DNA of 64,000 nt from Candidatus Thorarchaeota archaeon (GTDB taxonomy: Archaea; Asgardarchaeota; Thorarchaeia; Thorarchaeales; Thorarchaeaceae), in assembly GCA_048882045.1 (NCBI GenBank), contig JBHLRZ010000013.1, positions 21,365 through 85,364 on the forward strand, written 5' to 3'. A program made the translations under genes and the position numbers. A model generated the notes under the pieces. That model saw nothing but the letters and a program-made list of their open reading frames with translations, made no database searches and was not told the DNA's origin. Below, in pieces: positions 8,657-23,322 of this stretch. The first letter of the stretch is position 1, and the number at the start of each line of letters is the position of its first letter.

Positions 8657-9166
8657 TTGAGCAATCAGACAGACCTCATCAGAGAATCTATTCGTGACTG
8701 GTTCTCTCGTGAGGGAATCAAAGTAGAAACCATCAAGAATCCAAAGGCGGAGTTCTTGTTCAAGGTCAAGTTCCTCAGATTCTTCTTTACAGTGGTTCGA
8801 CCCAATGACCAGAGGTTCGTTCAGTTCGAGTCACAAATAATGATATCACCTCAGCATCAGCAGCTCCTCAATGTAGAGAAGATGCGAGAGTTCCAGATGA
8901 ACGCCATGAAGTTCTCATTCCAGGAGGGCTTTAACATGGGATTCGTGCAGCCAAGACCTGGACAGCCGGGACCACAACCCCCAGGTCCAGGATTCGTCAT
9001 TTCTGACCGAATCTACGATGATGGATTCACAGAAGACCATCTATGGAGAATAATGCGTAAACTTCACGGGGCCATTGACATGGTAATTGCAATGCTTAAC
9101 GATGTCACAGGACAGATTGGTGGAAAACCAGATACCACTGACACTGGACCTACGTACTATACATAA
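8657..9166 (+). CDS. DUF2299-like archaeal protein with a Pro/Gly-rich insertion
   Basis: I..W..EG, ISPQHQ and IYDDGFT pattern; TTG start after GGAGGAG. Confidence 0.6.
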   Translation: MSNQTDLIRESIRDWFSREGIKVETIKNPKAEFLFKVKFLRFFFTVVRPNDQRFVQFESQIMISPQHQQLLNVEKMREFQMNAMKFSFQEGFNMGFVQPRPGQPGPQPPGPGFVISDRIYDDGFTEDHLWRIMRKLHGAIDMVIAMLNDVTGQIGGKPDTTDTGPTYYT

Positions 9167-9276: not shown

Positions 9277-12200
9277 TTGAGGAAGAGGTTTTCGATGATG
9301 GCTTGGTTTGCAAAAAGGAGAAGGAAACTATCGCATAGGCGTCAAGGAAAATTAATCATACCAGTTCTAATGGTCACGATACTATGTTTCAGTCTACCTG
9401 TTCTGCTGACAAATCAGGATATGATCGTTTCTGAATCAACACCTCAGTTCCCCTTTTCCTTTAACAGCAAATCATTGCCTTCTGTAGGCAGCAGTGGCAT
9501 TGACATTTCTTCGGAATTACGGTATACACGAGAATTCCAGGGACTGGACATTTCGTTGATGAATAGCTTCGCTGATACAGCAACTCATCAGAATACATTG
9601 GATTTCTCAGCGTATCAAATTGCTGGATGGTCGCTATATGAGGTCCTGATTTCGACCTCTAGAGTTGTTGCACTGTCAGAACGCGAAGTTGTTGGGACTA
9701 GTAGTAGTCCAACCTATTCGAACTTCAACATCTCTGAAACCCCTATTGGAAACAAGTATTATGATCAACTAGCTCAGGGATTCTACAACCTAGGTCATGA
9801 CGGAAAATTGGAAAACATCTCTATATTATATGACAGCGACTACTATGATCCGTCAAACCAGAACTACGCATACTTCGACATCAGGTCGGACTATCAAGAT
9901 GGGAGCACCAACTTGGTGTCATCAGTCCAGTTGGCACACGTAGGACTCACTGCTACTTGGGCACATATAACAGAGTCTACTATTCTTGATGCAGACACGA
10001 CCTATTATGCTGTAATGAATGGTACCAAGTTAGTTGAGTATTTTGACATCTATCCCGTGATTCGTTGGTATTATCAGAATACCGCAGGATCATTTCTGAC
10101 TCGAAGGTATAGTACTGAGTTTAGTGCATGGAGTTCGGATAGACCGTATGAAGCGCTACTCAACTATACATATACACCGTGGAATACTACCAGTAATTTG
10201 GCTATGGAATACAGTAATCCAAGTAATGTATCACTCCAAGCAAATTCATCCTCTCTAAGCGGAACAGAGTGGCTCTTCAGTTCCACGACGAATGTTTCGC
10301 AAGTACAGTTTTCGTCCAATCAATCAATATCTATAGAGTACGACCTGACGCTCAGATACAAAAAAGGCATATCGTCGACAACCAGTTGGTATGTGGGTTC
10401 ATCCGGATTCGATGTCACATGGAATGTCACATCCGTTGCAGATTTTCCCGAACTGAGTGGGTCACTGGATAAAAACCTAACACTGGCCTTACCCAATGAT
10501 TGGACAGCTAACCATCTCTTCAACATCACAAGTCCAACACAATATTATGATTACTTCAGTCAAGATGGTTCCAACGTTGTTTGTAGTCTGTTAGGAGATG
10601 AAACGTGGATATTGGAGTGTACATCACCAAACTATCTCCAGTCAATCTCAAAGTTTGATAGTAGTGATGACAGTGTGATCACCGACCAAGTATCAGTTTT
10701 AGTAACGATGGACATCAATAGCACAATTGAAAGTCCTTTGTCAGTCATAGCAACAAATGGAGACGCTAGCCTAAGAGTGTTCTATCAAAGTTCAGTTGAG
10801 TATGAAGAGAACTATACCGTAGCAGCTGGTAAGTCATACCATCAGTGGGACATATCAACAGACTCCTCATCGAATGGACTACACACAGTTGAAATCTACT
10901 GGATGAATGGAACTGAGGCAGGATACCGAACAAGTGATGTCTTGGTTTACTATGAAACAACACTAGTAGCAGATGATTACAGCATCAATGCTTTCACAGA
11001 CAATACTTTCTATATTGGAATTGACTTTGATAGAGTCTTTCCGGTTGGAGGTTTAGATGGTTCTGTATCTGATCTGACGTATTCCTTTGGTGCTGTTGTA
11101 AATCAATCATTAACTGATCAAAGCAATGGCCGTTGGGATGCGACTGTTTCAACAACCAGTATGTCCCCAGGGACATATGACCTGTATGTATATGCAGAAG
11201 GCTATGCTCTTGAGAACAGGAGTCTTACTATTCAGATCTCACTCACTCATGACACAGAGGCTCTGACTTTCGCATGGTCCAATACAAATGACATCACCTA
11301 CATCGAATCCACTGAATTATCAGTCTACTACAACAGGGTGACTGGATCAACTCCAATTCCTGATGCGATAGTCAATGTCACAATTGGTGTAAAGACATGG
11401 AATCTGACATGGGATGGTTCAACTGCATACAAAATCACCTTCAACGGGACTGATGTGCCCCCCGGTTTTGGATTGCATGATTTAACCATAGAAGCCTGGA
11501 AAGCAGGTCATGTGGCAAGGTCAGACACATCACTGACTCTGAATATTCAAGCGGAACCTACAACCATGACTTATGAATGGTCTAATGGAGATGTCATTAC
11601 ATACATAGAATCTACAACTTTGATCGTGAACTACACGATGAGTGATGGTTCACCAGTTTCTGGGGCAGCTGTCAATGTTACAATTGGTTCGTTAGATCCG
11701 TTCATTCTTACATTCAATGGCTCAGTATACAAGTATGTGTTTGATGGAGATGCTGCATTACCAGGCATAGGTACCCACAGTCTGAATATCGCAGCTGGCA
11801 GATTTGGTTTTGATTACAAGGATGCGATTTCAGTCCCATTGACCGTATCCTTAGAGCCTACAACTATGACTTACGAGTGGTCCAATGGGAATGTCATTAC
11901 ATATGTAGGGTCTACGACAATCATAGTGAACTACACGATGAGTGATGGACTCCCTGTTTCTGGTGCAGCTGTCAATGTTACAATCGGATCCATGGATCCC
12001 TTTATTCTCACATTCAATGGTTCAGTATACAAGTATGTGTTTGAGGGTGATACAGCACTTCCAGGTCTTGATGTCCACAGTCTCACGATTTTCGCTGGCA
12101 AACGTGGTTATGAAAATAAAACTACAACATCTGTTCCTCTGACAATTAATGAGGAACCCACAACTCTTGTTATAACTTGGTCAGCAAGTAACAACGTTTC

Positions 12201-15200
12201 CTTCATTGGAGAAACCTATCTCATAGCAAACTACACAATGAGTAATGGTTCAGCGGTGTTAGGAGCGACGATCAATGTCACTATTGGTGCATATCCTCCA
12301 TGGGATCTTGTCTGGGATAATCCATCCCAAACCTATAGAGTTCTGTTTTCAGGAACCGATGACCCTCCAGGTCTTGGAGTACACACCCTGACCATCCTTG
12401 CAGATAAGTTTGGATATTCTGAGAAGAACAATGTATCCCAAATGATTCTCCGCGAGGAATTCACAGATTTGGTCCTTGGTTGGTCGGACGGGAATAGTAT
12501 AACCTACATAGGACAGACTATTTTGTCTGCATATTATACAATGGAGAACGGAACAGCAATTAGAAATGCTATGGTCAATGTCAGTGTTGGAGGTGCATCA
12601 GCTCTAATAATGACCTGGCATGAAGCCTCTCAGACATATCGTATCGTTTTCTCTGGATCAGATAATCCTCCAGGATTTGGCAATCACAGTATACTTGTTC
12701 TTGCAGATATATTCGGATATAGGGATCAATCAGAGGGATCATATCTAAACATCACTGTGGAACCAACAACAATAGACATCACATGGTCGAATGGAACTAC
12801 TATCACCTATGTTCAGCAAACCACACTCACAGTAACATATCGGAGGGGAGATACAACACCAATAGCTGACGCTAATGTAACAGCTTTGGTGGGAACTACT
12901 CTGTTCAATCTCACCTGGAATCCTGGTAGTTCAGCGTATGAAATTACTTTCAATGGGACAGACAATCCGCCGGATATAGGAACATATAACGTAATAATTG
13001 GAGCAAACAAGTTCGGATTCCAGAGTCAAAACAATGACACATATTGGCTCACTATTAACATTGAAACTACCTTCTTAGAACTATCTTGGTGGGTGTCCGA
13101 TACAATTTCATACGTTGGCCAAACGGTGTTGTATGCAAACTTCTCGATGAGTGATGGATCACCTGTCCTAGATGCCTATGTCAATGCATCAATAGGAACA
13201 CGAGAATGGATTTTCGAGTGGAACGAGTTTCAACAGATGTACATGTTGATACTGAGTGGAAATCATCCTGACATTGGTGTCGGCGTTTTTCCGGTAATCA
13301 TTAATGCAACTCTGTATGGATTTGCATCGCAGAGTAACACCACAGAAACATTGACAGTGAACGAAGAGATAACAAATCTGGAAATCAGTTGGTCGAATGG
13401 TTATAATTTGACATATTTTCACCACACTCTCCTTTCTGCTGATTATCACATGAGTAATGGAACACCCATCACAAGTGCAACCTTGATTGTCATAATTGGC
13501 ACGGATACATGGGATATGGTGTGGAATGAGACTGCATTATTGTATCAGGTCAGGTTCAATGGTTCTGATTCAACGCCAGGTGTTGGTGAACACAGTCTGA
13601 CAGTCCAAGCTTCAAAATACGGGTACATCTCACAGACAAATGACACACTGACACTGATCCTTCCAGTCATACCAACAACAGTTGAGATTACTTGGTCTAA
13701 TGGTCCGACAATTACCTATATCGAGCAGACAACATTGATTGTCACCTATTCCATGTATAATGGGACTAGAGTCGAAAATGCCATAGTATACCTCTCGATT
13801 GGGGCGGTGATATATCCATGTTCTTGGAATGGCGACTCATATGAACATACGTTCTTTGGAACCGATGATCCACCGGGTTTTGAGAATCACAGTACAGCGA
13901 TACATGCTATGAAGAATGACTTTGAATCACACCTAATTTTAGACCAATACCTGACAATCAGTGAAGATCCAACTACTCTTGTCATCAACTGGTCTAATAG
14001 CAACAACATAAGCTATGTGAGTGGGACAACATTATCAGTCAGATATCAAGACAGCTACTCCAATCCAATTCAAGATGCTCTTGTAAATGTCACAATCAAT
14101 GGAAGATTCTGGAATCTCAGTTGGAATCTAACCAATCAAACATACGAAATCTATATTGCAGGGGATGAAAACCCACCAGGTTTCGGAAATTACACTGTTC
14201 AAATTCTGGCATCAAAATATGGATATGTTGCACTAAATGATACATCTCAGGAATTCACAATTCATTTGGAGGAAACTCGCTTTGAATTCGTATGGGAACC
14301 AAGTGACACAATCACGTATGTTGAGCATACAACGATTAAGATCTTCTATCTGATGAGTAATAATACACCAATTGAAGGAGCTGTTGTAAATGTAACATGG
14401 GGACCATTTAGATGGGACGCTCTTTGGAATAATGACACAAAAGCCTATGAGATTACTTGGCTTGGAAATGATAATGACCTTGGCAGTCCAACCTCACATT
14501 CATTGGTAATCAGAGCATGGAAGATTAACTATGTTGGATTAACAAACTTTTCTCAGGTGTTGACAATCATTGAAGAACCAACTGCGATTTCGGCAAGTTG
14601 GACAAATGGCAACTCAATCACATTTACTGAATCAACAACACTCCTGGTTAATTATACTACAAGTAACGGAACTGTAATTCCATATGCAACCGTAGATGTA
14701 ACCATAGCAGGAACAGGGCCTTGGCTGCTAAGTTGGAATTCGACCAGCAAGCTGTATTGGATTGCTTTCAATAATGAATCTGCAGCCTGGCCTGGACTTG
14801 GTACTTTCGGTCTCTCTATCAGAGGATGGGATGTGGGTTATGAAACCACTGTCAACAACAGTCACACACTAACGATTCTCAGTGAGGAGGTTAGCATAGA
14901 GAGTAAACTACTTGGAGGAAATACGATAACCTATGTTGGTTCCACAGTTCTTCAGGTCAACTATACTACAACTAGTGGACTACCAATAGCTGGAGCCACT
15001 GTAAACGTAACTATCAATGGTTCTCTCTGGGATCTCAGGTGGCATGAAGCAAGCCAGACCTATCGAATTCAGCTCAATGGCAGTGATCCTCTGCTGGGAT
15101 TCGATACATTCAATCTAATAGTCAATGCATCAGCCTATGGATTTGACCCCTATCCTGATACGTCATTGTATCTAACAATCATTCTAGAACCCACAACTCT

Positions 15201-18200
15201 TGTCGCTACATGGGGGTCGCCGAATTTTAACAGTGTGACATATTTTGATTATACAATACTCTATGTCGAATACAGGATGGAGAATGAGTCAGTTATTCTT
15301 GGTGCTAGTGTCAACGTTACAATCGGAGCGTATCCACCATGGTCATTGAATTGGAATGCATCTGCAGGTGCATACTGTATCAGATTCAATGGAAGTGATT
15401 CACCTCCAGGGTTTGGCACACACACATTATCTCTCGAGGCCTCACTCTATGGATACTTAGATGCATTTAATTCATCAAGTCTCACTTTGGCCAGAGACCC
15501 AACAACTATAGATGTGTCATGGATAAAGGGCAACAACATTACCTATGTCGAGTATACAATCCTCTCAGTTGTTTATAGGATGAGTAATGGATCAAATATT
15601 CTTGAAGCTGCAGTCAACGCAACTATCGGAGCGTATCCACCATGGTCATTGAATTGGAATGCATCTGTTGGAGCTTATCAGGTCCGCTTTGATGGGAACC
15701 AAATTCCTCCAGGACTAGGAACATTTACTATAGATATACAAGCTTCCTCACCAGTCTTCGAAGCACAGTTTACATCAACCTCGTTGACTCTGAGAACTGA
15801 CAGCCCAACAGTAACACCATCGTGGTCATCAAATACATTCGACTGGACTGAGAGTGTAGTCCTTTCGTTTGACTTCGTGGATTCTCAAGGCAAACTCATT
15901 GAAGACGCCACTACGAAACTTGTCTTTATAGACGGTGTAGATTATGTTCTCTATGGAACCAATGGCACTTACTGGATTGAGTTTAACAGTACTTTTGATC
16001 TGGGACTCCACACCGTTTGGGCTAATTTCAGTAAGTATGGCTATGATCCAACTTCTGTAACATCAATAGAGTTCACAATCAACAAGGCTCTGACAGGTCT
16101 GACTGTAATCTGGTCATCAACGACGGTTGACTATCTGGAACATATCGATCTCACAGTCGATTATTACTACATTGGAACAGGTGTTACTGTCCCGTCTGCT
16201 GGTGCAGTCGTTAACATAACAATTGATGGAACTTTCCCACTTGATCTTGTCTTCAATGGAAGTCGATGGATAGGCACTCTCACCAGAAGCAACCTGAGCT
16301 TGGGCATTCATGATGTCGATATCAGAGCTCAAGTATACGGATATGAATACAGCGAATCCCTGGACATAGTTCTCACAGTAAACAACGTTGCAACAGACGC
16401 ATTAGTTGTGACTTGGGTTCCATCCAATGGCACAATTGAGTATACGGACCTACTAAACCTGACCGTGGATTACACATTCTATGGAGGAGATGTGCCTGAC
16501 ACAGCTTGGGTTAACGTGAGTGTTGATGGACGACTATACAATCTGACGTATTCAGCTGGATTGTGGAGGGTGAGTATTCCAGGTGAAGAGCTAGGTCTAG
16601 GACCTCGGACTGCAACGATATCTGCATGGCTTTACGGTTACCAATACAAGACTAATATCACTGCAGGAATAAACGTTACAGCTGCAGCCAATGCGTTCAT
16701 TCCGACATGGGAACCATTTGGTCTTCAAGCAAGCTACCTTGACACGATTAATCTAACGGTGTTATACCAGGAGGACTTTGTTTCTATAGATGGAGCGACA
16801 GTTAAACTATCAATCAACGGAACAATTTACACTCTTGAATACAACGACACTACTGAGTTGTGGCACTTCAGCATGAAGGCAAGTGACATCGGATTAGGTG
16901 TGTGGAATGTTACTGTCACAGCGAACAAGACTGGTTATGCTGATGGCTGGAATTCTCGTCTATTGACCATTTCATTAGCTCAGACAAATCTCACTGTGGT
17001 AAGTTCGTACACAACCATCTATTATGACGAGGTCGTGACACTCAGCATATACTATCAGCTCCTGAATACAAGTGTCGTTCCAGGAGCAAGTTGCACAGTA
17101 ATCTTGGACAGTGTTCTGCAATCAATCTCTTGGGTTACGGATCACTGGGTTGTAACACTGAGTGGAGCAGTAATGGGCCTTGGAGTCCATTCGGTGAGTA
17201 TTGATGTTGACGCCTATGGTTTCGAGTCCGATAATGACTTGTTCGATGTGACTGTGAATATCATTCCAACAAGTGTGGTTGTAGATAGTGCAATCTACAA
17301 TGTATATCCATATGATTCAGTTTCTGTGTCATTCACTTGGATTGATGATAAGAATGCTGTTGGCATTGACGGATATTCTCCGACCATAGAGTGGCCAGGT
17401 ACATACTCTGTCGTGGAATATGGAAACGGGATATATAGTATTGAACTAACTACTGATGCTCTACACGTAGGTATCTATCATCTGAATGTGACATTCACCA
17501 GGACAGGATATGTCGAAGGGACGAGTACCGCACAGATTGAGATGGTCGAACTGCCTATCGTTCTTACCTACGATAATGAGATCTTGCAATACGAAAACGA
17601 AACCATTACCATATCCATCCAGATCTATGATGGTCCTCATGCAACCATTGTTAATTGGGGAGAGATTGTCATTGACTTGGAGGGCGTTGAATACACACTG
17701 ACATATCTTTCCGGAACTCAGGAGTACTCAGTTGACATATGGTTAGGGACATTGACACCACGCACCTATTCTCTGAATTTCACCGCTTCAGCGACTGATT
17801 GTGAAACAGAAACAGGTGAAATCCAACTAGTGATAGAACCAAAATCACTGTATGACATTGTAGTTGATGCAGACGAAGAAATACAGGCTGGACAATCAAT
17901 CCTGATATCAATTCAAGTGAACGATGGTTCAGAAATAATCGAAGGATTTGAAGTAACCTTACATATCGTTGTTGACAGAGTAGTAGGTCAACCGCAAGAG
18001 TACGTCGAATCTAGAAGCAATTCATTTGAATTTACTGTCCCATTAGACGCAACTCAGCTGACCATTTGGGCAGAATTCGATGGTTCAATAGAGGAATGGC
18101 CAGCTGTTTCCAATACTATCACTAGAGAAGTGACTTCTAGTGGCATTCCATTTGGAGATCCAATGACACTGATAATGATAGTTGGAGGAGCTGGTGGAGG

Positions 18201-18255
18201 AGTCCTCGTAGTATTGTTTCTCATCAGAAGAAGATGGAAAAAATCCAGTTCTTGA
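9277..18255 (+). CDS. Giant (~2990 aa) cell-surface glycoprotein/adhesin: N-terminal head, ~24 tandem ~100-aa Ig-like repeats, C-terminal TM and a short basic tail
   Basis: Basic then hydrophobic N-terminus; repeats xPTTxxxxWSNGxxITY...A.VNVTI...W...Y...G.D.PPG.G...GY; very many N-x-S/T sequons; LIMIVGGAGGGVLVVLFLIRRRWKK anchor. Start may be ATG 9295 or 9298. Confidence 0.88.
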   Translation: MRKRFSMMAWFAKRRRKLSHRRQGKLIIPVLMVTILCFSLPVLLTNQDMIVSESTPQFPFSFNSKSLPSVGSSGIDISSELRYTREFQGLDISLMNSFADTATHQNTLDFSAYQIAGWSLYEVLISTSRVVALSEREVVGTSSSPTYSNFNISETPIGNKYYDQLAQGFYNLGHDGKLENISILYDSDYYDPSNQNYAYFDIRSDYQDGSTNLVSSVQLAHVGLTATWAHITESTILDADTTYYAVMNGTKLVEYFDIYPVIRWYYQNTAGSFLTRRYSTEFSAWSSDRPYEALLNYTYTPWNTTSNLAMEYSNPSNVSLQANSSSLSGTEWLFSSTTNVSQVQFSSNQSISIEYDLTLRYKKGISSTTSWYVGSSGFDVTWNVTSVADFPELSGSLDKNLTLALPNDWTANHLFNITSPTQYYDYFSQDGSNVVCSLLGDETWILECTSPNYLQSISKFDSSDDSVITDQVSVLVTMDINSTIESPLSVIATNGDASLRVFYQSSVEYEENYTVAAGKSYHQWDISTDSSSNGLHTVEIYWMNGTEAGYRTSDVLVYYETTLVADDYSINAFTDNTFYIGIDFDRVFPVGGLDGSVSDLTYSFGAVVNQSLTDQSNGRWDATVSTTSMSPGTYDLYVYAEGYALENRSLTIQISLTHDTEALTFAWSNTNDITYIESTELSVYYNRVTGSTPIPDAIVNVTIGVKTWNLTWDGSTAYKITFNGTDVPPGFGLHDLTIEAWKAGHVARSDTSLTLNIQAEPTTMTYEWSNGDVITYIESTTLIVNYTMSDGSPVSGAAVNVTIGSLDPFILTFNGSVYKYVFDGDAALPGIGTHSLNIAAGRFGFDYKDAISVPLTVSLEPTTMTYEWSNGNVITYVGSTTIIVNYTMSDGLPVSGAAVNVTIGSMDPFILTFNGSVYKYVFEGDTALPGLDVHSLTIFAGKRGYENKTTTSVPLTINEEPTTLVITWSASNNVSFIGETYLIANYTMSNGSAVLGATINVTIGAYPPWDLVWDNPSQTYRVLFSGTDDPPGLGVHTLTILADKFGYSEKNNVSQMILREEFTDLVLGWSDGNSITYIGQTILSAYYTMENGTAIRNAMVNVSVGGASALIMTWHEASQTYRIVFSGSDNPPGFGNHSILVLADIFGYRDQSEGSYLNITVEPTTIDITWSNGTTITYVQQTTLTVTYRRGDTTPIADANVTALVGTTLFNLTWNPGSSAYEITFNGTDNPPDIGTYNVIIGANKFGFQSQNNDTYWLTINIETTFLELSWWVSDTISYVGQTVLYANFSMSDGSPVLDAYVNASIGTREWIFEWNEFQQMYMLILSGNHPDIGVGVFPVIINATLYGFASQSNTTETLTVNEEITNLEISWSNGYNLTYFHHTLLSADYHMSNGTPITSATLIVIIGTDTWDMVWNETALLYQVRFNGSDSTPGVGEHSLTVQASKYGYISQTNDTLTLILPVIPTTVEITWSNGPTITYIEQTTLIVTYSMYNGTRVENAIVYLSIGAVIYPCSWNGDSYEHTFFGTDDPPGFENHSTAIHAMKNDFESHLILDQYLTISEDPTTLVINWSNSNNISYVSGTTLSVRYQDSYSNPIQDALVNVTINGRFWNLSWNLTNQTYEIYIAGDENPPGFGNYTVQILASKYGYVALNDTSQEFTIHLEETRFEFVWEPSDTITYVEHTTIKIFYLMSNNTPIEGAVVNVTWGPFRWDALWNNDTKAYEITWLGNDNDLGSPTSHSLVIRAWKINYVGLTNFSQVLTIIEEPTAISASWTNGNSITFTESTTLLVNYTTSNGTVIPYATVDVTIAGTGPWLLSWNSTSKLYWIAFNNESAAWPGLGTFGLSIRGWDVGYETTVNNSHTLTILSEEVSIESKLLGGNTITYVGSTVLQVNYTTTSGLPIAGATVNVTINGSLWDLRWHEASQTYRIQLNGSDPLLGFDTFNLIVNASAYGFDPYPDTSLYLTIILEPTTLVATWGSPNFNSVTYFDYTILYVEYRMENESVILGASVNVTIGAYPPWSLNWNASAGAYCIRFNGSDSPPGFGTHTLSLEASLYGYLDAFNSSSLTLARDPTTIDVSWIKGNNITYVEYTILSVVYRMSNGSNILEAAVNATIGAYPPWSLNWNASVGAYQVRFDGNQIPPGLGTFTIDIQASSPVFEAQFTSTSLTLRTDSPTVTPSWSSNTFDWTESVVLSFDFVDSQGKLIEDATTKLVFIDGVDYVLYGTNGTYWIEFNSTFDLGLHTVWANFSKYGYDPTSVTSIEFTINKALTGLTVIWSSTTVDYLEHIDLTVDYYYIGTGVTVPSAGAVVNITIDGTFPLDLVFNGSRWIGTLTRSNLSLGIHDVDIRAQVYGYEYSESLDIVLTVNNVATDALVVTWVPSNGTIEYTDLLNLTVDYTFYGGDVPDTAWVNVSVDGRLYNLTYSAGLWRVSIPGEELGLGPRTATISAWLYGYQYKTNITAGINVTAAANAFIPTWEPFGLQASYLDTINLTVLYQEDFVSIDGATVKLSINGTIYTLEYNDTTELWHFSMKASDIGLGVWNVTVTANKTGYADGWNSRLLTISLAQTNLTVVSSYTTIYYDEVVTLSIYYQLLNTSVVPGASCTVILDSVLQSISWVTDHWVVTLSGAVMGLGVHSVSIDVDAYGFESDNDLFDVTVNIIPTSVVVDSAIYNVYPYDSVSVSFTWIDDKNAVGIDGYSPTIEWPGTYSVVEYGNGIYSIELTTDALHVGIYHLNVTFTRTGYVEGTSTAQIEMVELPIVLTYDNEILQYENETITISIQIYDGPHATIVNWGEIVIDLEGVEYTLTYLSGTQEYSVDIWLGTLTPRTYSLNFTASATDCETETGEIQLVIEPKSLYDIVVDADEEIQAGQSILISIQVNDGSEIIEGFEVTLHIVVDRVVGQPQEYVESRSNSFEFTVPLDATQLTIWAEFDGSIEEWPAVSNTITREVTSSGIPFGDPMTLIMIVGGAGGGVLVVLFLIRRRWKKSSS
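11554..12153 (+). repeat. Recent intragenic tandem duplication, 300-bp period
   Basis: Units starting at 11554 and 11854 both encode EPTTMTYEWSNG.VITY..STT.IVNYTMSDG.PVSGAAVNVTIGS.DPFILTFNGSVYKYVF and share long identical DNA runs. Confidence 0.9.
15322..15667 (+). repeat. 43-nt exact direct repeat in adjacent protein repeats
   Basis: atcggagcgtatccaccatggtcattgaattggaatgcatctg at 15322-15364 and 15625-15667. Confidence 0.9.
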
Positions 18256-18496
18256 ATGCAATAATGGAAAAATGACTCATAGATCTAAACCACGAGTGTG
18301 TATTGAAGTGACACCCACAGTTTATTGATATGGCTAAATGTCAGTGTTAACATACTCAACAAGAGGTTCTTGGCACATCTTGAGATTGTTGAAAAGAAGA
18401 CTAAATGGTCCAGACTTTGGCTGAAGAAAGTACATTAAGCCAAGGAATACTGTGCTGAGATACTCCATCATAGCGAGTCACCATCGAGGTCAGAAC

Positions 18497-21400
18497 ATGA
18501 GAAGAGCAATTATCTCGATTATCTTTATACTTTCACTAATCAGTTTTACATCTCCAACGGTAACTGCTCCTCTAGGAAATCCTTCATCAGAAATATCCAA
18601 CTCACCGACAATGGATGATATGTTAATAGCAGACATCCTAAGTTCAGGAGCCATTGTTCCCATTATTCAGCATCTCAACAGATCGTTCACAAATCAGTTA
18701 ACAACACTATCAAACAGTTTTGCACTTCTAGATACTCATCAAAACACGGTTGATCTTTCATCTTATCAGATACCTGGTTGGACCTTGTCCAAAGTGATTA
18801 TTGAAAATGATAATATCACTGCAATACCTGAAAGAGAAGTAGCTGGCTCAAGCGCATCACCGAGTGCAACGTTGTCCTTTGCGATTTACGAAACAGGCAT
18901 TGATGTGTACATCAACCAGCTCGCTCAAGGATTCTATAACATGAGTCATGACGGGCAATTGCAAAACATTTCATTGTTGTACATGTCCCCATCATATGAC
19001 CCTCCAAATCATGACTACGCATACTTTGACATCAGATCCGATTATCAGGATGGGAGCACCAATATGGTTTCATCTGTTCAACTGGGATATGTTGGCATCT
19101 CTGCTACTTGGGCTAATGTGACTGAGCCGGTTGTTTTGGATGCGCACAATGTATACTATGCAGTGATAAATGGGACCAAACTATTGGATGTAAGTGGAAG
19201 TTATCCTCAGATACGATGGTTCTATGAGAATAATCCAGGGAGTTTTCTTACTAGTCGGTATTCTACTGAATTTGGTTCTTGGGGATCTAATTCCTTTGAA
19301 GCAATTCTAAATTATACATATATCCCCTGGAACAAAACATCGAACTCTGCACTCGTGTATTCGAGTCCTAGTCTTATTGACACAAGAATAGATGGAACAC
19401 CTGTGTCAGGGTCTACATGGATTGTGACATCCACGAATAACATCACATCATTCACTATTGCTACAAATCAATCTGTCAATTTATACTATAATCTTACATT
19501 GTGCTACACAGAAGATACTATTGGAAACACCCTTTGGGGAACTGATGTTTCAGGTGCGCCTATTGAGTGGAATGTTACTACTGACCTCACATTCCCAGCT
19601 GTATCCAATGTGATAGCTCGGGGTATGGATATCACTAATATTCCATTGGACTGGACTGGGACAGGCCTCTACCTTGGTGCAGCTCCAGCAGGCTCCTACT
19701 CAAAATCAGGTACGAATGTAACTTGTACCGGATTGAGTGATGGATTATGGACGTACACTTCTACAGCTCCAAACTATGTTGTAGATTTATCACTCTTTGA
19801 TACATCTGATGACTCTGCAATACCTTACAAGGTTGCAAACACAGTTATAATTGACGCCAATGCAACGATAGAAAACGGAGTTGGAACACCACAGACAGGA
19901 GGCGCCGCAAATCTATCAGTTCTGCAATCTTCAACTCTCATCTATTCACCCTTAGAGATTCCTGCAAACTTAGGAGCAGCTGATTTTCAGTGGGATATCA
20001 GGGCAACAACAAACGGGAATAGCACTCATTCTGTTGAACTATATTGGATCAGTACAAATCAACTTGAAGCTGGATACATCACCCAAGAGGTCTTTGTCTA
20101 TCATTCAACAACTTTAGTTGCGGATGAAGTAAATATAGATGCTCTCACTGAGGTTCCATCAGCATTCACTATTGGTATCAATTTCGATAAGATTAGTCCG
20201 ACGCAAGGACTGGAAACTGGTACCGCAGATGTGACCTATTCTTTCGGAAGCACTGTAAACCAAACCTTGATTGATGAAGGTGGAGGTAGATGGACCTGGG
20301 TTGTAGATACAACAGGCATGGAAAACGGAGTATACCCCCTCACAGTTTATGCTGAAGGATTTGCATTGGAGAATCAGAGTCTTGTAATCATGGTAAATCT
20401 TGCTCATCAAACTAGTGCTCTCAATTGGAGCTGGTCCAACACAAACGATATTGCCTATCTGGAAAGCACTAATCTTTCTGTCACGTATCGATACTTGCTT
20501 AATGAAACACGAATTAATGGAGCAACTGTCAACGTAACATTCCAAGGTTCAACGTATAACATGGCGTGGGATTCAATTTCTCAGACATATTGGATTGAAC
20601 TGACTGGTGCGAATTTCACAGGAGTTCCAGGAACATTCTCACTAACTGTCAGTGCGTGGAAAGTTGGATTTGCGCCGCAATTCAATGACACAAATATGAT
20701 CACAATAGGAAGCCAGACTGGTGAAGTATTCAGCGTAGAATATAGTCCATCAACTCTGAACATATCATACATCGAGAGTCTGTTTATTCAGGTTTCGTAT
20801 AACTACAGTTCTGTGCCAATTGATAGTAACACACTCGTGAGGATTACTTTCAATGGTTCAGCACAAGTTGATCTCGTATTCAACTCCACATCAGCAAAAT
20901 GGGAAACCACACTTCTTGGAGTCGATTATCTTGGTGCATGGGATATCATGGTGAGAGCAACGGCTGATGGCTATACAACCCGAAATGATACAGCCCTTTT
21001 CACAGTGTTTGAGGATACACCAATTCTAATCAGTGATTGGCTGCTCAACTCTTCAACTACAGACTATGCAACCAATGCGCCACTGATAATCATTCTCACT
21101 ATGTCAAATGGAACTCCAATCACAGATGCTACTGTGACCTTTACTGCATTTGGAACATTCTATCCTTCACCAGCAGGACCTGGAGGCCAGTACACATTCA
21201 GTATTGATCCTACTGAAACAAGAGGAGTTGAAACGTTCATAGTTACTGTTGTGAGGACGGGATTTGTTACTTCGCAGATAACACTAAACCTGACAGTAGA
21301 AGCTACAACTACTCTCAATTTCAGGAACTATGTGAGTTCAGAATATGAACAGTGGAATGTGACAGTTGAAGCAAGGTATTGGGATTCGTTCCATAGCGAA

Positions 21401-22954
21401 TCAATTGTGAATGCAACCGTCATTGCAACGCTGGATGGTACTGACTATATTCTTCAATATGATTCTGTGGAAGAAATATACTACATAGAAATAATTCTCG
21501 ACATCAATCCAGGAGATTACATCATCTATATCTCAGCCTCAGCGCAATATGCAGTATACGCAACCAATCAAGCCGATTTCACTGTGAGACCGAAGACTCA
21601 TGTCTACCTAGAAATCACATTTGACGGCGACCTGACTGCAGGACAATTCATGGAGATTCGAGCAACGCTAAGAGAAAATGGCACTAATGATGCAGTTCCG
21701 GGAGAGCCAATTCGATTCGAAGTTTGGGTGTACTTCGATAATGGTACAGTCATCCATTATGCAGATGGCTCAATGGCAGACAATACCAACTCCGCAGGTG
21801 TTGCAGCCCTAGGATTTGAGGTTCCTTTTGGCAACATCAACAAACTGGTTGCTCATGTGATATTTGATGGCTCTCAGTTTCTATGGGCTACACAGCTTAT
21901 TGAAGAAACAGGTGTTGGAGTAAGTCCACTCTCACTCCTACTAGCGTTCTTCCTTTCCGATGTCGGACTTTTAATGATAATTTCAATAGCTCTGCTTGGT
22001 ATTGTTGCCGCTGGATATAACAGAGGAGTCAAGCCCAAGAAGAGAGCAGCCAGAAAGGGTCTGGAAAACCAGCTTCAAATGTTCAAGGACCTCGAAACTG
22101 TCCAGCATTTCATGGCAGTGTATCTCGATCGTGGGACATGTGTGTTCTATCATCCGTTTGCAGAAGACAGAATCCAACCAGATTTGATCAGTGGTTTCAT
22201 AGCTGCCATCACCAGTGTATATGGCGAGATCAAAGGAGATGGCGTGCGTGGAACTCTTGAAGAGATTCAGTATCAAGGACTTCGACTAAACAGTTACAGT
22301 GGTCAATATATCATCGGAATTCTGATTCTTGGTGGAGAGATGACTCCACTTCTAAGGGAGAGGCTGCAGTTCTTTGTTGAGTTGTTTGAGAATCAATATG
22401 ACCATGACCTCGATGGTTGGACTGGAGTCGTGGACTGCTTCGACCCTGAGTGGGTTGTGTCAACACTCAACTCAGCTTTCAACTATTCCTGGCACCTACC
22501 TCATAGATTCGGACCAACTCAAAAAGTGTCAAAGGATGACGCTAGGATACTGGACTACATTGGTGCAGTAAGAGATGAGAGAAACGAGTTCTACATCAAA
22601 GACCTCCTGACACCCTTGGCTGAGATGTTGGACAAGACTCCAGCTCAAGTGCTAGATAGACTCCTTTACTTGCAGGATAAAGGTGTCATAGTTCCAATTG
22701 GAATTCAGACTATTCTTCAGAGACAAGGACTAGCGCTGGTTGATGGTACAGAGGAGTGGCAACCACCGGCTAAGGAGGAACCTGTTGAGGAGCTTGAGTA
22801 CGAACTGGAGGCACCACCAGATGAAGAGATAGAACCTGAACCTGTGGAAGAAGAAGCTGAGGTTGATGAACTAGAAGCATTCGTTCAAGATGTCGAATCA
22901 CTTCTTGAAAAGGAAGCCGAGAAAGAGAAGCCAGAAGAGGATACTGAGAAATAG
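18497..22954 (+). CDS. Single-pass receptor-like surface protein: head paralogous to the giant protein, ~6 Ig-like repeats, TM, cytoplasmic longin-like domain, wHTH-like segment and acidic tail
   Basis: ATG after GAGGT; signal peptide; shared head (QLAQGFYN..HDG.L.NIS.LY, YAYFDIRSDYQDGSTN.VSSVQL); TM at ~21930-22020; G.C.F ... DLISGFIAAI ... RLQFFVELFENQY longin pattern; E/P-rich C-terminus. Confidence 0.82.
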   Translation: MRRAIISIIFILSLISFTSPTVTAPLGNPSSEISNSPTMDDMLIADILSSGAIVPIIQHLNRSFTNQLTTLSNSFALLDTHQNTVDLSSYQIPGWTLSKVIIENDNITAIPEREVAGSSASPSATLSFAIYETGIDVYINQLAQGFYNMSHDGQLQNISLLYMSPSYDPPNHDYAYFDIRSDYQDGSTNMVSSVQLGYVGISATWANVTEPVVLDAHNVYYAVINGTKLLDVSGSYPQIRWFYENNPGSFLTSRYSTEFGSWGSNSFEAILNYTYIPWNKTSNSALVYSSPSLIDTRIDGTPVSGSTWIVTSTNNITSFTIATNQSVNLYYNLTLCYTEDTIGNTLWGTDVSGAPIEWNVTTDLTFPAVSNVIARGMDITNIPLDWTGTGLYLGAAPAGSYSKSGTNVTCTGLSDGLWTYTSTAPNYVVDLSLFDTSDDSAIPYKVANTVIIDANATIENGVGTPQTGGAANLSVLQSSTLIYSPLEIPANLGAADFQWDIRATTNGNSTHSVELYWISTNQLEAGYITQEVFVYHSTTLVADEVNIDALTEVPSAFTIGINFDKISPTQGLETGTADVTYSFGSTVNQTLIDEGGGRWTWVVDTTGMENGVYPLTVYAEGFALENQSLVIMVNLAHQTSALNWSWSNTNDIAYLESTNLSVTYRYLLNETRINGATVNVTFQGSTYNMAWDSISQTYWIELTGANFTGVPGTFSLTVSAWKVGFAPQFNDTNMITIGSQTGEVFSVEYSPSTLNISYIESLFIQVSYNYSSVPIDSNTLVRITFNGSAQVDLVFNSTSAKWETTLLGVDYLGAWDIMVRATADGYTTRNDTALFTVFEDTPILISDWLLNSSTTDYATNAPLIIILTMSNGTPITDATVTFTAFGTFYPSPAGPGGQYTFSIDPTETRGVETFIVTVVRTGFVTSQITLNLTVEATTTLNFRNYVSSEYEQWNVTVEARYWDSFHSESIVNATVIATLDGTDYILQYDSVEEIYYIEIILDINPGDYIIYISASAQYAVYATNQADFTVRPKTHVYLEITFDGDLTAGQFMEIRATLRENGTNDAVPGEPIRFEVWVYFDNGTVIHYADGSMADNTNSAGVAALGFEVPFGNINKLVAHVIFDGSQFLWATQLIEETGVGVSPLSLLLAFFLSDVGLLMIISIALLGIVAAGYNRGVKPKKRAARKGLENQLQMFKDLETVQHFMAVYLDRGTCVFYHPFAEDRIQPDLISGFIAAITSVYGEIKGDGVRGTLEEIQYQGLRLNSYSGQYIIGILILGGEMTPLLRERLQFFVELFENQYDHDLDGWTGVVDCFDPEWVVSTLNSAFNYSWHLPHRFGPTQKVSKDDARILDYIGAVRDERNEFYIKDLLTPLAEMLDKTPAQVLDRLLYLQDKGVIVPIGIQTILQRQGLALVDGTEEWQPPAKEEPVEELEYELEAPPDEEIEPEPVEEEAEVDELEAFVQDVESLLEKEAEKEKPEEDTEK

Positions 22955-23019: not shown

Positions 23020-23322
23020 ATGCCATGGGATATACTTACTTACAACATCATTGACAAACGCATTCTCAAGGTGGAGATTGCAACCCCCCTAATAGAGTTC
23101 ATTTACCTCAAAATCGATGACGTCAAGGAAGCCTGGTTAGAGATGTTGGGTCAGTTTGTAACTGAACAGCCTGGTATTGACATGTCCTGGGAAATGGAGC
23201 CAAAGGGAGAGGATGCTCTAGTTACCATAAAGATAGCAAAAATTGGGGAACTTCCTGAGTTCAGTCCGGAAGAAGCTCGAGGGGCAATTTCTGCAGTCGA
23301 TGCCATATTTGACAAGAAGTAG
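23020..23322 (+). CDS. Hypothetical protein (100 aa)
   Basis: ATG ORF filling the gap between genes; plausible composition; no motif. Confidence 0.65.
   Translation: MPWDILTYNIIDKRILKVEIATPLIEFIYLKIDDVKEAWLEMLGQFVTEQPGIDMSWEMEPKGEDALVTIKIAKIGELPEFSPEEARGAISAVDAIFDKK

Follow-up and report, generated by a model that had tools for sequence, protein, structure and literature searches.

Myxococcus TraA, encoded at a single locus, has a conserved stalk of repeats that bears a variable, lectin-like domain at its N terminus, and this domain moves horizontally (PMC6372800). Dictyostelium TgrB1/TgrC1 form a linked, polymorphic pair of immunoglobulin (Ig)-like membrane proteins that is reshaped by recombination, with a near-invariant receptor tail (PMC11088635; 10.1101/2025.08.01.668227). 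In periscope proteins and fibrillar Ig-repeat adhesins a ligand head is held on a tandem-repeat stalk (PMC9704523), and the archaeal paralogs mtrA-1/mtrA-2, which share a locus, have been homogenised in a single domain and differ in the others (PMC4632066). Here we describe a candidate cell-recognition system found in a 64,000-nucleotide stretch (the window) of a Candidatus Thorarchaeota archaeon (GCA_048882045.1, contig JBHLRZ010000013.1, positions 21,365 to 85,364). It consists of two tandem genes, the long L and the short S, whose products share an N-terminal head with a probably lectin-like tip, a stalk of Ig-like repeats and a single transmembrane (TM) helix; S adds a predicted cytoplasmic tail of longin fold. 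Comparison of many loci indicates that the tip is an exchangeable cassette that is kept matched in L and S. Contact-based models of the origin of eukaryotes require partner choice. Asgard cells have no ordered S-layer, and unidentified surface densities are thought to mediate their cell contacts (PMC9834061). The locus supplies named candidates for such surface proteins and a natural experiment, in which several tip types are matched at two heights above a receptor tail with a fold that eukaryotes use around small GTPases.

The L/S proteins resemble TraA in having an N-terminal variable domain that is discordant with the rest of the gene, and TgrB1/TgrC1 in being an adjacent, co-varying, Ig-like pair with a conserved receptor tail, both likenesses being analogies. 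TraA has a PA14-like domain, cysteine-rich repeats, MYXO-CTERM and TraB, whereas L and S give no such Pfam matches. Furthermore, S has two cysteines in its ectodomain, a TM helix followed by a cytoplasmic longin tail, and no outer membrane to sit in; the locus holds two matched copies, and no homology to TraA was detected. TgrB1/TgrC1 are built from TIG/IPT domains and encoded by diverging genes, while L and S have no TIG Pfam match, tandem genes and homologous, homogenised tips. L and S belong to neither family, and a Pfam scan of both gave no match above the cut-off. No description of the architecture or of the pair was found in the literature, in a search that covered few subscription papers. 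The single ingredients have precedents elsewhere; for their combination, and for two heads that switch together across 7 kb, the literature searched offered none.

The L gene (9277..18255, + strand) starts with TTG, with an alternative ATG at codon 7, and encodes 2992 aa: a signal/anchor (aa 26–44), the head, ~24 Ig-like units, the TM helix and a 9-residue tail. On the same strand, with 241 nt between the L stop and its ATG, the S gene (18497..22954, + strand, within the open reading frame (ORF) 18452–22954) encodes 1485 aa counted from the ATG at 18497: a signal, the head, ~6 Ig-like units, the TM helix, longin, winged helix, acidic linker and terminal helix. The pair of ORFs, the numbers of units, the helices and the tail lengths had been read correctly in an earlier note on this DNA, including the ~310 residues that follow the S helix and the L protein ending nine residues after its own. 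The two proteins are colinear (BLASTP, 39% identity over 1019 columns, E=0), every motif quoted in that note as common to both lies at its place, and the heads, 48% identical over 585 profile columns, have one shared fold. No further full head was found when the whole focal genome was searched. The L tip, of type A (9670..10197, + strand; aa ~132–307, approximate boundaries), and the S tip (18824..19345, + strand; aa ~110–283, a predicted lectin-like beta jelly-roll) are 63–64% identical. N-glycosylation sequons number 105 in L, 36 in the S ectodomain and one in the S tail, a distribution that supports the predicted membrane topology.

Across the family, tips fall into deep types, with about 25–40% identity between types and 50–70% within them, and the types cross species and genus lines. 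Of the 28 loci examined one was a duplicate, and in 26 of the 27 distinct ones the types of L and S agree. Mean L–S tip identity is 58% within genomes versus 36% across genomes, and a permutation on 17 pairs gave an observed value of 56.8, the highest of 100,000 shuffles being 51.8. In the focal genus the necks split into an L clade (support 99) and an S clade, and monophyly of the L tips is rejected in the approximately unbiased (AU) test (p-AU 2.6e-44). The trees of the upstream and downstream flanks agree with each other and disagree with the head tree. On a 23-locus tree of the S stalk and tail there are at least 12 type changes, each of them common to L and S. The proposal that one head is displayed at two heights is reinforced, because the tips stay matched while their types turn over. 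In one genome (locus L085, G040:C95; G and L numbers denote the genomes and loci compared) a third head copy is present, and its tip type is the one found in L and S there.

The exchanged parts are two separate segments. Against the sister copy in genome G045, the focal L is 28–49% identical over aa 100–600 and then mostly 60–80% along the stalk; S is 32–54% identical over the head and then 58–94%. Between loci L113 and L114 the L stalk is 84% identical in DNA over 8.2 kb and the S stalk with its downstream region 88%, while both heads have about 30–40% protein identity. Transfer of L together with the S head as a single block is ruled out, since the intervening L stalk follows the species tree. 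Heads that switched recently resemble those of their own paralog within the type, L heads other L heads and S heads other S heads, with an L–S tip identity of 57–63% (L113, L114). This indicates that both heads were acquired or retained together and not copied one from the other. Homologous flanks permit the replacement of a single head, yet mismatches are nearly absent, which points to selection; selection for matched specificity is the best reading.

Conversion between the two genes does occur. In locus L115 a tract of 764 nt is 87% identical in DNA between L and S (S aa ~74–328) and does not extend beyond the tip region, the remainder giving no DNA alignment, and locus L118 holds a tract of 78%. 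Recent conversion in the focal genome is ruled out, its tip DNA being 70% identical with a longest exact match of 14 nt. Such tracts would suit a process without selection, in which tandem paralogs of coat glycoproteins homogenise one domain by conversion in the manner of mtrA-1/mtrA-2. Long-lasting, domain-restricted conversion is known in archaea (PMC4632066), and in L/S, as in mtrA, the shared domain groups by genome and the rest by paralog, with a conversion tract present in the DNA. However, mtrA is an enzyme without allelic types, whereas L and S have in common the very domain that varies most, and its type changes from lineage to lineage. Moreover, the L-like and S-like heads kept in recent switches, and the scarcity of mismatches where single heads could be replaced, speak against it. 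Neutral conversion explains some of the pattern and leaves paired acquisition unexplained, and as an explanation of the whole we consider it quite improbable.

Two head alleles were observed in one species: L057 (G001) and L117 are 99–100% identical in DNA over ~6.8 kb and 23–47% over the first ~350 aa, a within-species difference unless one of the assemblies is chimeric. With two alleles on an otherwise identical S gene, turnover also runs without L. Turnover in singleton lineages and within species would likewise be expected if the tip were a docking site for viruses or DPANN-like parasites that drive a frequency-dependent replacement of types. Two tip types would then open the cell to two classes of enemy, so that matching would be favoured without any tip–tip binding, and the most exposed domain is indeed the most divergent between types. 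However, the types are few, old and common to several genera, not continuously new, and the conserved tail and the two heights would be left unexplained. We judge such a cause unlikely, and it can coexist with the preferred reading, recognition of one surface ligand by both tips.

The cytoplasmic part of S also favours this reading. After the TM helix (21935..22012, + strand; near aa 1147–1172) follow a longin-fold domain in the predicted structure (22097..22495, + strand; aa ~1201–1333) and a winged-helix-like domain (22502..22723, + strand; aa ~1336–1409), the latter proposed from secondary structure and from weak helix-turn-helix Pfam matches of homologs. An acidic linker then precedes a terminal helix with the motif F-x-x-[DE]-V-E-x-L-L (22880..22906, + strand), which 96 of 113 S proteins have within their final 70 aa. 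The tail model (predicted local distance difference test (pLDDT) 85) has the order beta-beta-alpha-beta-beta-beta-alpha-alpha of longins, behind which comes a small, mainly helical domain that includes a short beta pair, and the top matches of the tail in Foldseek and VIA are longins throughout. The best is CPLANE (Z 13.0, root-mean-square deviation (rmsd) 2.9, 124 aligned), followed by AP-5 and synbindin (12.4) and a Lokiarchaeal longin (12.3), with TRAPP in the range Z 12–13. In the comparison with NPRL2-like Asgard longins, which join a longin to an NPRL2-specific C-terminal domain, the GATOR1 chain 8fw5_B aligns to positions 24–222 of the model with Z 9.4 but rmsd 10.4, and there is no Pfam match. 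By its modelled fold, the S tail is a longin. Thus, the suggestion in the earlier note that the short protein is wired to the cytoplasm holds to the extent that a folded longin and winged-helix module is predicted after the TM helix.

Known longins (AP sigma/mu-N, TRAPP sedlin/synbindin, Sec22b/VAMP7, CPLANE and NPRL2) have the same fold over ~125 residues at an rmsd of about 3 Å and, as in S, precede a small helical domain; the S longin is only 6–15% identical to them. Unlike the Asgard 'NPRL2-like' longins, as presented in the available part of their description (10.1101/2020.10.19.343400), it sits behind one TM helix and an 1100-aa ectodomain. Conservation across the family is 46–90% in the tail versus 31–69% in the head. 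A stand-alone soluble protein of 348 aa, 38% identical to the S tail, is encoded in another genome (L066:5638-6681, G018:C6).

S is a core single-pass protein of Thorarchaeota, and L is its upstream duplicate. A tail ortholog (E <1e-59) is present in 67 of the 86 family genomes, one apiece, and the tail profile matches 138 of 201 genomes of the phylum at E<=1e-15. The full head is limited to the family and one neighbouring family, and homologs of neck and tail extend across Asgard archaea. The usual gene order is nitrilase, DUF2299, [L], S, a 100-aa ORF and a larA-like gene. Synteny of the long/short pair, on which the earlier note had laid weight, is kept in four genera and is not universal: 12 loci of other lineages have a single S of intermediate length. 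Paired S proteins have a median length of 1515 aa and single ones of 1884 aa, in loci that are not phylogenetically independent. A profile search for L over proteins of up to 2975 aa found few further copies. In two relatives L is split into two abutting ORFs, namely L075 (G019:C86; 1004+1853 aa, with an N gap nearby) and the G046 locus (2738+716 aa), and at L071 (G028), in the focal genus, S is preceded by an unrelated gene and no L tail, so that L may have been lost or moved.

The focal L ends with its TM helix and a short basic tail (18163..18252, + strand; TM aa 2963–2983 plus 9 residues), where most orthologs continue into a winged helix. Of 34 distinct L C-termini, 32 keep a tail, absent only in the focal genome and G049. 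Most tails are ~90–160 aa long and contain a winged helix, preceded in six by longin-like sequence. In the sister copy G045 the tail is a winged helix of ~90 aa. In the membrane-proximal tree the focal L is sister to the tailed G045, with the tailless G049 elsewhere, which indicates two independent, recent tail losses. These data do not support the view of the long protein as a pure tether by design, a description that holds only here. The possibility raised in the earlier note, a recently truncated copy with the same cytoplasmic domain, is upheld as regards the recent loss and not as regards the domain: what was lost is L's own winged helix, which gives no match to that of S (best E 0.19). 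No remnant of the lost tail was found in the L–S spacer by tblastn. An assembly error as the origin of the short tail is ruled out, as contigs from four runs (two studies; three of the runs are possibly the source of the assembly itself) span the L stop and the spacer without differences.

Related proteins occur elsewhere among Asgard archaea. In another Asgard family, loci L101, L102 and L104 (G132, G145, G190) each have three tandem single-pass giants of 1400–2300 aa, with the same neck domains and helical, non-longin tails. In genomes of another Asgard family, loci L106 and L107 (G259, G227) encode proteins of 1887 and 2246 aa with neck, Ig stalk, TM helix and longin/winged helix-turn-helix (wHTH) tail, whose distal head is a different one.

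Nearly all of the head is beta in the model (pLDDT 95). Its membrane-proximal domains are Ig/macroglobulin-like (Z about 11), and its N-terminal part resembles the lectin-like jelly roll of Cwp84 (PF18560) with Z 10.4, rmsd 3.3 Å and 147 aligned residues, in a four-domain model. Atlas leads for this part are lectin-like (feature score 0.87), DUF4082 and PHR domains. A search of PDB sequences with head and tail profiles found nothing significant, and whole-head Foldseek comparison with viral and PDB structures gave generic beta-rich matches only (TM-score about 0.2). From the model, the tip is probably lectin-like, and S aa ~110–283 would be the distal, sugar-binding part.

A complex model of two heads scored 0.59 versus 0.00 for the best control, with contacts agreeing 100% between runs and partner pLDDT >=89. 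Of the solved pairs, 58 of 80 attain the pass mark, as do 2 of 110 mismatched ones; at 0.60 or under lie seven of the 80 solved pairs and both mismatches, a range in which passes are oftener wrong than right, and the model lends weak support to a head–head contact. Such a contact would fit a greenbeard-like self/non-self locus, in which the ligand of a tip is the same-type tip on another cell (S–S in singletons, L–S in pairs). L would serve as ligand and tether, and S as a receptor that reports the match through its longin to a small GTPase, as an archaeal counterpart of TraA and TgrB1/TgrC1. The deep tip types that cross species and genus lines, the two alleles in one species, a near-invariant receptor tail as in TgrB1 (PMC11088635) and a horizontally moved lectin-like variable domain as in TraA are all consistent with it. 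However, compatible TraA alleles are 95–100% identical in the variable domain (PMC6372800), whereas L and S tips here reach 63–64%, and the predicted contact may be an artefact of how the heads were cut, or a contact in cis. We rate self-recognition as doubtful. We know of no aggregation or kin behaviour in Thorarchaeota, which also counts against it.

We lean, by a modest degree, towards a reading in which the two tips have a surface ligand in common, bound by L at a distance and by S close by, and in which the longin of S relays the event to a partner in the cytoplasm. S would be the ancestral, family-wide, receptor-like protein, with an exchangeable lectin-like tip borne by Ig units, a single TM helix and a tail composed of longin and winged helix. 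This tail would most likely dock a small GTPase or another longin/roadblock protein, and S would cluster or signal upon binding. Tandem duplication would have produced L, whose stalk grew to ~24 units while that of S shrank to ~6, and whose tail would have eroded from longin-like plus wHTH to wHTH only and, in the focal genome, to none. The tip would set specificity, recombination would exchange tips between lineages, and selection with occasional L–S gene conversion would keep both tips of one type. L could then capture at long range the ligand that S engages nearby, either a same-type tip or a glycan of a partner or substrate. Ligand binding, selection as the cause of matching and signalling through the longin are the parts that we infer, and this reading and its rivals overlap.

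Several observations weigh against it. The lectin-like assignment depends on a middling Z in a multi-domain model and on Atlas leads below 0.9. Tip types were defined by clustering the same sequences, the permutation and AU tests being independent of that step. L and S tips are 46–85% identical, a closeness that same-type tips from other genomes reach as well. The one unmatched locus, G010, holds a duplicate of separate origin whose S-like tail is complete. Singleton lineages also swap tips, so L is dispensable. Finally, the annotated neighbours of the locus include no GTPase gene.

In the stalk, the repeat hidden Markov model (HMM) detects 20 strong units of ~101 aa in L (aa 661–2650) and four in S; the counts of ~24 and ~6 include a weaker first unit and divergent membrane-proximal units, counted by length and alignment. 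The L stalk (10963..18126, + strand) follows the species tree. One unit of 303 nt (15322..15624, + strand), flanked by a 43-nt exact repeat, is missing in frame from one contig of run X5 and represents a stalk-length variant within the population. This recalls the repeat-number variation of periscope proteins in populations. Periscope repeats are highly identical, whereas those of L and S are clearly diverged (59% DNA identity around the deleted unit), in TM-anchored proteins with cytoplasmic domains.

Among the neighbours, the DUF2299 gene (8657..9166, + strand) is the habitual upstream one and serves as a synteny marker. The conserved 100-aa ORF (23020..23322, + strand; 56–82% identity among relatives, no Pfam family) lies directly 3' of S in pair and singleton loci and may belong to the system. 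A scan for sigma-70 promoters and terminators gave hits at chance level and is unsuited to archaea. No RNA data set was listed as containing the locus, a result that is neutral as to expression. A soluble protein of 396 aa that begins with a longin-like domain and has no Pfam family is encoded about 27 kb upstream of L (L110:3011-4201, + strand), and about ten relatives have similar proteins of ~400 aa at 10–30 kb from their head gene. The focal genome (G000) has 14 ORFs of at least 2000 aa, the largest of 5898 aa (contigs C47, C3, C28), several of which match the repeat HMM weakly. It also encodes three further single-pass giants of 1354, 1789 and 1566 aa (L111, G000:C4:64321-73859; L112, G000:C23:31591-36288), which match the neck weakly and whose tails of ~250 aa seem longin-like on visual inspection. 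Those of 1354 and 1789 aa are in tandem, 24–48% identical in the ectodomain and 57–69% in the tail.

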